Below, piece by piece: positions 17,201 to 23,200 of a DNA stretch of 64,000 bases; the first letter of the stretch is position 1; every line of letters starts with the position of its first letter. The position numbers were made by a program. Source of the stretch: Escherichia coli (GTDB lineage: Bacteria > Pseudomonadota > Gammaproteobacteria > Enterobacterales > Enterobacteriaceae); NCBI RefSeq assembly GCF_016026235.1, contig NZ_CP065614.1; one strand, 5' to 3'.

Positions 17201-20200
17201 AAGCTGTATTAACCTTTAAATAATATTCTGAAACTTCAAGATTAACTGTGCGACAACGGCAGCACCAAAAAATGCGCTAGTAAAAACCACAAGGGATACA
17301 ATAACTATTTTCCAACTGAGTGACTTCAGTTTGTCAATACTGTTCCCAACAGACAGACCGGCAAACGCAAGAAGTGGCGTCGTCGTTGCCAAGAAATCTA
17401 TTTTATTGGTCATACTCATAAATATATGACTAACGGGTGAATAAGGCATGCTCAGTAATAAGGCAATCAGTGTTGCCCAAGCAAACGCAGGAAGTGGAAT
17501 TTTGGGTAACCAAATTTTTATTTGAATTGATGCGATAATAACTAGGAACATTACTGCTGCACCTGGTAGAGCATCCACTACTGACATTCCTTTACCAATA
17601 AACTGTGCCAGCAATACCAGAGCGATACAAGGAATAATTATTTTTGTGTTATCTGAAAATGTTTTAATGTCCATCATATATACCGTGGATTATTTACGAA
17701 GAAGTTTATAGATGAAGTTGCTCAAGGGAAGGGCAAGAAAGATAAGTGCATACATTCCTGTCACGGCTGCCAGCATATTACTCGTGGCCGCAAAGGCGAG
17801 GATCTGACCAGACATCTCGGGTACAGCATTTGATAAAGAAGCTGATGCGGCTGCCATCATGCTGCCGGAACCAAGTCCACATGCGACAGCTAGGGACAGA
17901 GGATGTAATCCAAATGTGAGTCCTACAGGGCTAATAATGCCAAAGAAAACGGTGCCAAGAACGCTTCCGACAATATAAGTTCCAAGTACCCCCGTTCCCT
18001 CTGGGCTATTGATACCATACTTTTCACCAATAACTCCCAGTGATGGTTCCCGTGAAATACTGGAGCAGGCACCAACGGCCTCTCTGCGCATTCCCAATAA
18101 AATAGCGAGCGGCATAGCAATTAATACAGATGCTAAATTACCTAATTCCTGAAGGATTAGCGCTGGCCCGGCCTTGATAACCTCAGAAACATTGGGGCCA
18201 ACCAAGGTGCCGTATTTTACCCCGAGTGGTAATAATGATATCATCACTATGTTTCCGGTTTTTTTAATCGCGTCATGATTAAGTATATTACCCAGTGGTC
18301 TGATATATTTTCCGATTAAATCAGGTGTCACAAGAACACCAATAATAACGGCGTACAACATGGGTAATAGACTAAAGTTGACACCAAGGGCTGAGACCTT
18401 AATAACACCAATGCTTTCTGCTATTACAGTTATAATCCCTGCGGTAACGAATATTACACCTGATGACTTGATTAGCTTTAAAGTTTTCATAAACAGGCTC
18501 ACTTGTTAAATTTGTTTTAAGCCTATCAACAACTATTTGAAAGAATAATTCCTTTTCTTTTTTGGATATACACAACATGTATATCTGAGCGGTTAATATT
18601 GATTCTTATCAAAAAAACACAACAGAGGGTTTCTCATAATATAATGATTAATATGCGATTTTTTTATTGTAGATCTGTATCACAAACTGGGAAGGTACCG
18701 GGTTGTGGAAAACCCGCCCGACGTTTCCTCATGGAATGAACACTGATATGCATCACCTGACAGATGTCGATGGTTCATGATGAACTGCCAAAATATCTGC
18801 TGGCTCCAGAAGTGAGTGCCCTGCTCCATTACGTCCCTGATCTGCGCCGCAAGATGCTGCTGGCCACACTGTGGAACACCGGAGCACGCATTAATGAAGC
18901 ACTGGCGCTGACGCGGGGGGATTTTTCGCTCGCGCCTCCGTATCCGTTTGTGCAGCTTGCGACACTGAAACAACGGACCGAAAAGGCAGCCAGAACGGCA
19001 GGAAGAGCGCCGGCCGGTCAGCAGACTCACCGGCTGGTTCCGCTCTCCGACACCTGGTACGTCAGCCAGCTGCAGACGATGGTGGCAACACTGAAAATCC
19101 CCATGGAACGGCGTAATAAACGAACAGGCAGGACAGAGAAAGCGCGGATCTGGGAAGTGACAGACAGAACGGTCAGGACCTGGATTGGGGAGGCGGTTGC
19201 CGCCGCTGCCGCTGATGGTGTGACGTTCTCTGTCCCGGTCACGCCACATACGTTCCGCCATTCCTATGCGATGCACATGCTGTATGCCGGTATACCGCTG
19301 AAGGTCCTGCAGAGCCTGATGGGGCATAAGTCCATCAGCTCAACAGAGGTCTACACGAAGGTGTTTGCGCTGGATGTGGCTGCACGGCACCGGGTGCAGT
19401 TTTCGATGCCTGAGTCCGATGCGGTGTCTATGCTCAAAAGAATTCCTTAAGCTCTGACTTTTTTAAATCCCTTTCGGATATCTCATGGATATATTATCGG
19501 TATTTCATATTCTGTTGACATGCAGGACTGGTATAGAGTAAAAAAACATCTATTGAGTACCTCTTGGATATCCGAAAGGTGTCTTCGGGGTTCTTTATGG
19601 GTATTACATGTGGATTCTGGAGATACACTATGCCTGTTATTGCTAATACGCATCCCAAAGGTGGTGTGGGTAAGACAACTTCATCCGTAAACATTGTTGG
19701 TGAAATGAAGTCTGATACAGTTGATCTGGATACTCATACCGGGCTTTCTATCATTCTGGGGCTGAGACCTGAAGGAAAAGAAATTTCCGTGAAAGTACCC
19801 AAAACAGTGGATGAGTTAATCGAAATTATGACTCCCTACAAGAACAGCGATAAGACGTTACTTATTGACTGTGGGGGATTTGACTCAGATCTTACCCGTA
19901 CTGCGATTGCCTTTGCAGACTGCGTTATTGTCCCTTCAAAAGACTCCCTGACTGAGCGTATTGGTTTGATGCATTTTGATGGAGTACTGGACGAAATCAG
20001 CTCTATCATGGGGACCGATATAACTGCTCACCTGTATCTCTGTAAAGTTAATCCTAACAAGAAGAAATTCCCTAAGCTTGATGCAATCCTGCCATCATTC
20101 AAACATCTGAAGCTGATGAAGAGCCGCATTTCTGCTCGTGCAGAATTTGAGGATGTCATTGAGACTGGGATGGGAATCACTGAGTCTGTTCATGGGCGCT

Positions 20201-23200
20201 ATTCGGCAGGAGGTAAGGAAGTTATTGCCCTGATCGAAGAAATCAATCATCTGATTGAAAATAATAAACAGTAAGGTGTATCCATTGGGTATCCATATAG
20301 TATCCTTTGGGCTTTTAATGGATATCTTTTAAGTATCTAACAAACATCCTGGGTTATCTCATGAGCAAAGCGAAATTTAGTGCACAGGCTGAAAAACTGA
20401 AAAACCTGGTGGATTCTGCCAGATTACAAACTTCTTCTTCTGCCGTAACAGCAACAGCCCCGTCTCAGCCAAATGAAGGTGCAGAGGAAGTTTCAGGTCG
20501 TCCCGTGGCTGCCAGGACGAAGGCTAAGAATCTTAAGGCCATACCGCTGTCGTATTTTGAAGCTCATGCGGAACTTAAAGCGACCAGTAAAACATCTCTG
20601 GATTTTAGCTCATATATTATTGAGGCTATAAGAGAGAAGCTTGAACGTGATGGTGCAATAGGTCAATAAACTATCAGATACCTTAAGGGTATCTGATGTG
20701 TGTCTTTTAAATGCGTTATGGGGATTCTTCACGTACCTAAAGAGTCCCCATTAGACATCTTTCTGTATATGGTGAAATGATTCGTCACCGCTTTCCTTTC
20801 CTCTCAGTTTCACCATTTCATTCCTTTTCCCTTAACCTGAACCATGATGTCAAAGATGTTTTTATATTGCATTTATGTATCATATATAACCTTCATAATG
20901 TTTTTGTATCTGTGATTTCCTCTGGTCTTAAAGTTGTGCGTACAATGTACATGCAATTTATCGTGTTTTTATATTGCATTTGCCCTTTCAGGAAGACCAT
21001 ATTTTCATTATAATTGAATATACATTGCATGTATGAGGCATGTTTGTTTTTCTATTTGTTTATGAGCAACGGAGACTGGTTATGAAAATCTTTATTGATG
21101 ATGGTTCTACCAACATTAAACTTGCTTGGTTGGAGGATGGTGACGTGAAAACGTTAATCAGCCCTAACAGCTTTAAACCGGAATGGTCTTTTAGTTTACT
21201 GGATGATGCTGCCCCGGCTAATTACGAGATCGACGGCGAGAAGTTTTCATTTGATCCATTAAGTGCTGATGCTGTCGTAACGACTGAAACACGCTATCAG
21301 TACAGTGATGTGAATGTTGTGGCCATTCAGCATGCGCTACAGCAGACCGGCCTGAAAGCGCAGCCTGTTGATGTCATCGTCACATTGCCGATCTCTGAAT
21401 ACCTTGACGCCAACAATCAGAAAAATAAGCAACACATTGAAAGAAAGAAAAAAAATGTGATGCGTGAAGTACGGGTGCAGGGGAGTGATGCATTTGTTAT
21501 TCGCAGTGTTTCCGTTCTTCCTGAAAGTATTCCCGCTGGTTTCAGTGTTCTTGCGGGGCTTGAGGATGATGAATCCCTTTTGATCGTAGATCTCGGTGGT
21601 ACAACTCTTGATGTGTCGCATGTTCGTAGCAAAATGACAGGGATTACAAAAACCTGGTGTGATCCGAATATCGGCGTGTCCCTGATTACATCCGGGGTTA
21701 AGGAACAGATGGCTGTACATGCTAATACAAGAATGAGCTCATTCCAGGCTGACAATATCATTGTGCACCGTAATGAACCTGACTACCTTTCCCGTCGCAT
21801 TTATAATGCTGAACAGCGTGAGTCTATCATTAATGTTATCAATGAACGGCAGAAGTTGCTTATTAAACGAGTTAATGATGTCATCAGCCGTTTCACCGAC
21901 TATACACATGTAATGTGTGTTGGTGGTGGGGCTGAAATTGTGGCCGAGGCTGTGAAGAACCTGACTAAGGTTCCTGATGAGCGCTTTTATCTGAGCTCAT
22001 CCCCGCAGTTTGATTTAGTCATGGGAATGATAAAAATGAAAGGTGGTGTGACTAATGAGTGATGAAAATAAATCCAGACGCTGCTCATTTGAACTTTTCC
22101 CGGATGAACGGACAGGAGATAAGATAGCAGATGAGCTCATTGCAAATGAAAAACTGAAGGAGCGGGGACGTTTCATGCGCGCGATGTTAGTTACTGGTGC
22201 GGCGTTTGCAGCTATAGATAAACGTCTTCCTTTGCTGATATCGGAGTTACTGACAGAAAATACGACTCTGGATGATATTAATAAGGTGATTTCCAGCGTA
22301 ATACCAGGTGCTTTTTCGGTTGAAAAGAAATTGCTTGAATTACTGGAAAAACAATCTGGTCTCCATACGTCTGTGGATTGCAGTACTCCTCTTACAGAGC
22401 AGAGTCTGTCGAGAAATGACGGTGAAGACCAGACCAGAAGAAACGCTGAAAATATGTTCGGAGATGACTGAACTAACCCAGCCTGGCCAGGGGAATATCT
22501 CGCCATTTAGTTGTATAACACTGACTCAACATTTCCCGTTTCATTTGCCATTCAGGGGCGGTTCCTCGCCCCGCAAACAATCCACCCGCTCAGCCCCCCT
22601 GTTGCGATGGCGGGTGGTCCCCTGCACCCGAGGAACAGATAATGAAGCCGGGCTGTTTTTTCCCGACTTCGCCAGCGCTGCCGATTATTGTATGGAGAAA
22701 GATATTCCATACCGGACCAGCGGGAGCATTTGAACAGAAACTTACGGTTTTGCTCTTTCGGTAGGCTCAGAACCACGGCAGCCTGGCGGCTGCAAATCGG
22801 GGTGTGGCAGAATATGAGCTTTCAGAGTAACCATCCAGAATGAGTTCCCATGTCACACAACCTGGAGCACCAGAAAGCCCACACCAGAATGGTGAAAGAG
22901 GTTCTGAAATCCGTCGCCAGAGCCAATAATCACCCTTATCCGTCCGTATTTGCAGACTTTATCGCCGGTCATCCCTCCTGCACGGTCTGTTTCTGGGAAA
23001 CCTTCCACAAAATGTACCCGGATTCACCGTACGAATACGTCACGTTCTGCCATACCTGCCGTCGTTTTGATTTATACGAAACAGAAGCGGAGATGAAGGC
23101 GGATGACCCGAAATGGTGGTGATTTTCAGCCCCGACCGCTGAAACGCCTGTTCACAGCCAACCAGTGCTGGACATCCTTCCTGGATGCGGGCGGTCTGCG

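Follow-up and report, generated by a model that had tools for sequence, protein, structure and literature searches.

A 64,000-nt stretch of Escherichia coli DNA (contig NZ_CP065614.1; below, the window) contains two plasmid partition systems lying one behind the other on the same strand, and the question raised by this locus is whether such a tandem is something unusual, as a first-pass annotation had proposed, or a module already known. Inspection of the open reading frame (ORF) list and of the sequence showed that window positions 18761-22578 carry on the plus strand a tyrosine recombinase gene, parA, a gene for a 102-aa protein, parM and parR, together with two distinct sets of repeats. All five genes were found at the coordinates and in the orientation that had been claimed, and domain and structure matches agree with two partition systems in tandem, each with repeats of its own: ParA with a small partner, followed by ParM with ParR. 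Very probably this block is a 3.8-kb piece of the R64-type IncI1 backbone that resides in an insertion sequence (IS)-rich plasmid of the enteroinvasive E. coli (EIEC)/Shigella invasion plasmid (pINV) type and contains two complete, independent partition cassettes.

The R64-type block and its distribution

In a blastn comparison, window positions 18761-22578 correspond to positions 44515-48332 of the IncI1 prototype R64 (98.4% identity over 3819 nt). The gene order annotated for R64 (NC_005014, 44425-48225) is site-specific integrase (resD), ParA (WP_001144036.1), a hypothetical protein (WP_000030199.1), ParM, ParR (WP_001278818.1) and impB, and the RefSeq identifiers of ParA, the 102-aa protein and ParR are identical between R64 and pCFSAN029787_01, a plasmid that matches the window. 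To determine how widespread the block is, positions 18504-22700 were compared to PLSDB by megablast. At least 5000 plasmids were matched, at least 1037 of them over 80% or more of the query length. Seven large E. coli plasmids, among them pCFSAN029787_01 (294 kb, IncFIA), match the whole query at 99.7-99.9% identity and share the junctions of the block; with typical IncI1 and IncI-gamma/K1 plasmids the match is limited to query bases 258-4075 (98.6%). Besides IncI1, the block therefore occurs in plasmids of the IncI-gamma/K1 group and in large pINV-type plasmids with an IncFIA replicon type. A passage of PMC4541600 that cites Sampei et al. (2010) lists resD and parAB in the stability region of R64, and in a survey of 460 I-complex plasmids 48% carried the parAB genes of R64 (PMC10286972).

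The remaining window matches EIEC/Shigella invasion plasmids with ipaH1.4, ipaH4.5, ipaH7.8, virF, senB and many IS elements, and thus the suggestion that it is plasmid-borne was borne out. The proposed novelty of the tandem arrangement was not: since it is the standard layout of the R64/IncI1 backbone, found in more than 1000 sequenced plasmids, it is not unusual. Type I and type II systems are commonly found together on one plasmid, and the tandem is the usual IncI1 form. The R64-type double partition module has already been sequenced and annotated, so that its discovery value is low; what the window adds is an IS-mosaic virulence plasmid of the pINV type that acquired an IncI1 inheritance module. 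The features of the block are compiled in Table 1.

Table 1. Genes, remnants and candidate sites of the R64-type block (window coordinates).
Feature	Position	Strand	Remarks
resD-like tyrosine recombinase pseudogene, 5'-truncated	18761..19450	+	ORF from internal ATG 18764-19450, 228 aa
Hexamer region upstream of parA, candidate operator/centromere site 1	19451..19629	.	GGATAT 19476, GGATAT 19487, CGGTAT 19498 (11-bp phase, opposite orientation); GGATATCC 19566; AGATAC 19621
parA, 214-aa Walker-type partition ATPase of small type Ib size	19630..20274	+	ATG start, GGAGA ribosome-binding site; same 214-aa product in RefSeq; begins MPVIANTHPKGGVGKTT
parA/102-aa spacer, candidate centromere/operator site 2	20275..20360	.	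GTATCC-type hexamers in exact 11-bp register: 20278, 20289, 20300, 20322, 20333, 20344
Gene for 102-aa presumed centromere-binding partner, R64-type 'ParB'	20361..20669	+	protein id WP_000030199.1 as in R64
Palindrome TATCAGATACC-TTA-AGGGTATCTGATG with T-rich tail	20672..20698	.	intrinsic-terminator-like hairpin score; two inverted hexamers at 20676/20689
parC-like region upstream of parM	20857..21064	.	ATTGCAT cores, 18-nt direct repeat, TGTTTTTNTAT units
parM, 326-aa actin-like partition ATPase	21082..22062	+	RefSeq 'plasmid segregation protein ParM'
parR, 138-aa adaptor	22055..22471	+	start overlaps parM end; protein id WP_001278818.1
impB 3' remnant (Y-family polymerase gene)	22473..22578	-	RefSeq 'DUF4113 domain-containing protein, incomplete, missing N-terminus'; R64 homology stops at 22578, end of the IncI1-derived fragment

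The type Ib cassette contains a divergent ParA and a presumed partner protein of three parts

ParA has the size and motif expected of a type Ib ATPase (about 200-220 aa, KGGxxK[ST], no N-terminal DNA-binding domain). Its deviant Walker A motif KGGVGKTT occupies residues 10-17, and when the protein is aligned with ParA of pB171 and pESBL, both the Walker A residues and the aspartates of A' and B prove to be conserved. The NCBI model for partition ParA proteins (NF041546, ParA_partition) was matched with E=1.6e-14 and 53.9 bits, below its curated cut-off of 180 bits, the Pfam families MipZ, AAA_31 and CbiA were matched weakly, and so were ParA/Soj proteins in the PDB. Identity is 19% to the pB171-type protein and 24% to the pESBL-type protein (blastp; 25% in the alignment). 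Judged from these comparisons, ParA of the window is a divergent member of the group.

The gene for the 102-aa protein begins 86 bp past the end of parA, the place at which type Ib systems carry their partner gene, and five other loci show this synteny. Alignments of its family reveal three parts. The N-terminal segment (QAEKLKNLVGSARLQTS) is conserved, the low-complexity linker that follows it varies, and the 48 residues of the C-terminal domain are nearly invariant. The N-terminal part forms a helix with the motif SARLQT and the invariant residue R21, and the C-terminal domain consists of an extended segment and two helices. A long disordered tail, as previously described for this protein, was thus not confirmed; conserved N-terminal helix, variable linker and conserved domain were found instead. 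A profile search of the full database yielded 56 clusters of 70-120-aa proteins with the domain at the C-terminus and the family consensus P..[YF][FV][ED]AH..LK..G.T.L.F..YI.EA.REKLERDGA. Close relatives are confined to Enterobacterales plasmids. In NCBI records, relatives of the protein (20361-20669; P0001-P0077) are frequently named 'molecular chaperone GroEL'; they have no relation to GroEL, and the naming looks like a propagated annotation error.

At all examined loci with upstream DNA on the contig (L010 from Kosakonia, L012 from Pectobacterium, L014 and L016), a ParA-like gene (208-214 aa) precedes the small gene at a distance of about 80-100 bp. At L010, L014 and L016, on plasmids and phage-plasmid-like contigs, this layout is kept without adjacent ParMR. 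The contigs of the distant family members L014 and L016 carry phage-like genes (AcrIF11-like, Phage_VG64, ParE-like, methylase), which suggests that phage-plasmids also use this family of ParA and small partner.

Hexamers at one-turn spacing surround parA and the partner gene

RTATCY/RGATAY hexamers are concentrated in the non-coding stretches next to parA and the 102-aa gene: 14 are located in 366 nt, i.e., 38 per kb compared to 2.2 per kb in the rest of the 64-kb window. This enrichment of about 17-fold over background provides the cassette with the short repeat arrays of a type Ib system. Three places carry the hexamers: the region upstream of parA, the spacer between this gene and that of the 102-aa protein, and the DNA behind the latter. 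The highest density anywhere in the 64 kb was observed over the parA/102-aa spacer and the region upstream of parA. The first-pass annotation had described these repeats as GGATATCC palindromes. Both repeat sets of the block do occur beyond chance, but only a single site (19566-19573) is a true GGATATCC palindrome, and hexamers in an 11-bp register describe the array better.

The arrangement is conserved in relatives. In the Kosakonia locus (ParA 74% and partner 60% identical) hexamers occur at the same three positions with 27 versus 2.1 per kb, and in the Pectobacterium locus (ParA 84%, partner 64%), again at the same three positions, with 37 versus 3.2 per kb. The C-terminal domain of both partner proteins is nearly invariant despite the overall identity of 60-64%. 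The distant relative L016 has the same hexamers, including some upstream of parA; in L014 a different motif takes their place. A hexamer-bearing spacer of about 80-100 bp is conserved in L010, L012 and L016. Since conserved sites go together with an invariant C-terminal domain, it is this domain that probably reads the hexamers, which gives a concrete, testable prediction of where the 102-aa protein binds. The position of an array between parA and the partner gene is unusual and conserved across the family; it could permit separate control of the two genes.

We regard as evenly balanced the proposal that the 102-aa protein, itself never studied, founds a family of type Ib centromere-binding proteins that has no Pfam entry; the protein would read RTATCY hexamers at one-turn spacing and have its main array between parA and its own gene. 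If this is true, a group of plasmids with clinical importance has a main partition system that is still uncharacterised, given that R64-type parAB is reported in about half of the I-complex plasmids.

At 20711-20758, past the 102-aa gene and ahead of the parM repeats, lies an imperfect inverted repeat of 24 nt (ATGGGGATTCTT...AAGAGTCCCCAT), which may serve as another terminator or be recognised by a protein.

The type II cassette resembles parMRC of R1

ParM is an actin-like ATPase that matches the R1 ParM structures with E=2.7e-103 and 52.5% identity and has its catalytic aspartate at position 170, as in R1. As stated in a passage of PMC6519299 that cites Jensen and Gerdes (1997), D170 of R1 ParM is needed for ATPase activity. 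The adaptor encoded downstream, ParR, matches the Pfam family Plasmid_stab_B (E=1.1e-27) and, over residues 1-83, the PDB entry 2JD3 of pB171 ParR, 'StbB' (E=2e-6).

The repeats upstream of parM are of a different kind than those of the type Ib cassette. Four of the ten ATTGCAT/ATGCAAT cores in the 64 kb are located in the 160 bp before parM (20866, 20951 in inverted orientation, 20973 and 21024). In addition, the 18-nt sequence TGTTTTTATATTGCATTT is repeated exactly and directly at 20857 and 20964, 107 bp apart, and four TGTTTTTNTAT units are present (20857, 20899, 20964, 21045). Homologous parM loci have their own, different short iterons at this place, 11-bp phased units in the Pectobacterium locus and, in R621a, repeats of one family whose starts are 10 and 51 bp apart, as is expected because centromeres evolve fast.

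The recombinase gene and impB are remnants

A resolvase-like recombinase upstream of the partition genes had been proposed as part of the maintenance block. A tyrosine recombinase gene is indeed present, but it is not intact: relative to R64, whose protein has 259 aa, 31 codons are missing at the start, and DNA homology to R64 begins exactly at 18761. The remaining ORF corresponds to residues 32-259 of the R64/IncI integrase WP_001164198.1, with 98.7% identity, and is 97.8% identical to ResD of the pB171 type. In pCFSAN029787_01 the identical gene is annotated by RefSeq as a pseudogene ('site-specific integrase, incomplete, missing N-terminus'). XerC/XerD-type models match with scores below their cut-offs, and the catalytic-domain motifs ARINEAL, HTFRHSYA and STEVYTKV are still legible. 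The complete pair of N-terminal and catalytic domains expected of a ResD/Xer recombinase is thus missing, and as far as the sequence allows to judge, the remnant is probably inactive and no working part of the maintenance block here.

The IncI1-derived piece is truncated at both ends, on the left inside resD (18761) and on the right inside impB (22578); upstream of 18761 the DNA is unrelated to IncI1. IS91, IS4 and IS3 elements and metabolic genes flank the block. Past the impB remnant, an IS91-family element starts at about 22850, followed by an IS3-family element (24103-25312), so that the fragment is bounded by IS-rich DNA. At window positions 1-18502 and 39001-64000 are found pgtABCP, genes for phosphoglycerate transport, together with tdcA, an M20 peptidase/DUF3100 cluster, ipaH1.4/4.5/7.8 and numerous IS elements; overall, NZ_CP065612.1 matches best. 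The inverted repeat GATATACACAACATGTATATC at 18564-18584 does not belong to the IncI1 fragment; it is located between truncated resD and the DUF3100 operon, with a gene for a tdcA-like LysR regulator nearby. This repeat may contain the same hexamer by chance, or it may be an operator for the neighbouring metabolic genes.

Proposed mechanism and alternative explanations

By analogy with other type Ib systems, ParA in its ATP form would bind the nucleoid. The 102-aa protein would be its partner: enrichment and conservation of the hexamers suggest that its C-terminal domain, as a dimer, most likely binds the one-turn-spaced sites at all three places, and by analogy with ParG and ParF of TP228 the conserved N-terminal helix with R21 most likely stimulates the ATPase activity of ParA. 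Binding at the upstream and spacer arrays probably represses the genes as well. In the type II cassette, ParR would bind the repeats upstream of parM, and ParM filaments would drive the two plasmids of a pair apart, as was demonstrated for R1. This mechanism is proposed here on the grounds that ParM is 52.5% identical to its R1 counterpart and retains Asp170, that ParR carries the Plasmid_stab_B domain and that the repeats lie upstream of parM.

The 102-aa protein had been taken for a ribbon-helix-helix (RHH) protein. This fold was not confirmed. No sequence match to Pfam, NCBIfam or PDB was obtained with the protein as query, nor one to PDB with the profile, and none of 35 relatives matched an RHH Pfam family. 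The AlphaFold monomer contains helices at residues 3-19, 63-75 and 78-96, with a mean predicted local distance difference test score (pLDDT) of 66 and values below 50 at residues 26-33 and 35-44; Foldseek matched nothing with it. An artificial linked dimer of the C-terminal domain was modelled without a strand (mean pLDDT 56), and the Foldseek search with this model was empty; confidence is low in both models. Between this family and that of pB171 ParB, which hits RHH_1, hhalign gave a probability of 1%. These results speak for the alternative that the C-terminal domain is another small helical DNA-binding fold and the cassette type Ib-like in layout only. On the other hand, the order of an extended, proline-containing segment (KAIPLSY), a helix, a G-x-T turn (consensus LKxxGxTxLxF) and a second helix fits RHH, and the hhalign alignment, not significant as it is, lies in the RHH register. 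Short sites one helical turn apart are moreover typical of RHH partition proteins. A different fold is, on balance, a tentative option that we consider somewhat unlikely.

Two further explanations touch the function of the block as a whole. It is very unlikely that ParA and the 102-aa protein have no part in partition and are a ParA-like ATPase with a small transcription regulator, for instance of neighbouring genes, leaving partition to ParMRC alone. The low score of ParA against its curated model, the weak PDB matches and a partner without recognised domain would agree with this, but the arrangement classic for type Ib, in which the ATPase gene is followed by that of a small protein and arrays lie up- and downstream, is conserved in plasmids without an adjacent ParMR, for instance L010, L014 and L016, and in its three parts the partner is built like known type Ib partners. 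Less improbable, if still unlikely, is an inert relic of a past recombination between IncI1 and pINV-type plasmids, with intact genes but inheritance ensured by other systems elsewhere on the plasmid. Both ends of the block are truncated (resD 5', impB 3') and its flanks consist of IS91, IS4, IS3 and metabolic genes; in addition, deletion of either or both partition systems of the S. flexneri pINV barely altered stability (PMC6519299). Against a relic, the four par ORFs are full length, the identifiers of ParA, the 102-aa protein and ParR are those of R64, all repeat arrays are kept, and the same junctions recur at 99.7-99.9% identity in seven large plasmids.

Our reading of the block as two complete, independent partition cassettes has to be weighed against several observations. 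Truncated on either side and bordered by IS elements, the block may be redundant here. For the DNA-binding fold of the 102-aa protein, RHH is a plausible but unproven candidate. The searchable literature, including a search by accession number, yielded no experimental work on the R64-type ParA/102-aa pair, and the experimentally tested type Ib system of IncI plasmids, that of pESBL, is a different one. R64-type 102-aa protein and centromere were thus apparently never studied. In the type II cassette, the ATTGCAT core and the TGTTTTTNTAT unit are both candidates for the ParR site. A simple scan revealed no clear sigma-70 promoter, hits being no more frequent than in shuffled sequence. Finally, the parC of R1 consists of two sets of five 11-bp iterons, and the parM repeats of the window (four ATTGCAT-core sites, one of them inverted) differ from this layout.

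Comparison with known partition systems

The experimentally tested type Ib ParAB system of the I-complex plasmids pESBL, pMS7163B and R621a (PMC7602700, PMC10286972) shares with the type Ib cassette a small ParA, a partner protein of roughly 100 aa, repeats to either side and a location next to impB. It differs in that ParA has only 24% identity, the two partner proteins show no relationship in sequence, the repeats are GATAACAA octamers and the orientation is opposite. The pESBL system stabilised mini-F, formed foci and bound its GATAACAA octamers (PMC7602700). This study was rejected as a characterisation of the present locus, as it concerns a different ParA and partner and different repeats. 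Likewise, the parAB genes of pMS7163B found essential by transposon-directed insertion-site sequencing (TraDIS) were considered and rejected, since the sole ParA/partner pair in pMS7163B is of the pESBL type. R621a carries its own ParMR elsewhere on the plasmid in addition to the pESBL-type ParAB. According to PMC10286972, pESBL carries the parAB of R64 at 100% and pMS7163B a different parAB. In RefSeq, pESBL-EA11 (NC_018659), pMS7163B (NZ_CP026855) and R621a (NC_015965) share WP_000587689.1/WP_001245884.1, and R64 (NC_005014) has WP_001144036.1/WP_000030199.1; the parAB names in that paper seem to be crossed.

ParG of TP228 is an RHH partner with a flexible, mobile N-terminal tail. The 102-aa protein is similar to this ParF/ParG system in its build, an N-terminal part (with a conserved arginine in the window protein) and a small C-terminal domain; it differs in that no sequence relationship is detectable and the RHH fold is unconfirmed.

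The type II cassette shares with R1 parMRC the ParM identity of 52.5%, Asp170, the overlap of parM stop and parR start and repeats upstream of parM. In S. flexneri pINV, two partition systems located 90 kb apart have been tested (PMC6519299). Window parM/parR are probably not StbAB of this plasmid, since StbA was reported to be 42.5% identical to R1 ParM with the aspartate at 173 (PMC6519299), compared to 52.5% and Asp170 here; this comparison is by reported figures. The Pectobacterium locus has the same tandem of ParA, partner, ParM and ParR, with ParM 51% and ParR 34% identical.

For pB171, the double par locus had been described as two operons diverging from a shared region, and the pB171-type plasmid L005 has this layout: integrase, parB and parA on the minus strand, a shared spacer of 228 bp, then parM and parR on the plus strand. 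Like the window, it carries a type Ib and a type II system side by side directly after resD, whose product is 97.8% identical (95% at the DNA level). In contrast to L005, where the operons diverge from the shared intergenic region, those of the window are in tandem and have separate repeats; the proteins are 19% (ParA), 36% (ParM) and 29% (ParR) identical, and the small partner and ParB do not match. The block is thus neither orthologous to the pB171 locus in its proteins nor divergent in its operons. DNA homology to L005 covers window positions 18761-19439 (resD, 95%) and resumes for 49 bp at 22530-22578, the end of impB, so that between shared flanks the R64-type and pB171-type double par loci have unrelated interiors of 3.1 kb. 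This pattern suggests, at the level of sequence comparison, that the resD-to-impB interval is a slot in which whole par cassettes are exchanged. With R64, the agreement extends to genes, order, strand and repeats; the difference lies at the ends and in the surroundings: the block of the window is cut inside resD and impB and resides in a virulence plasmid of the pINV type, not in an IncI1 backbone.

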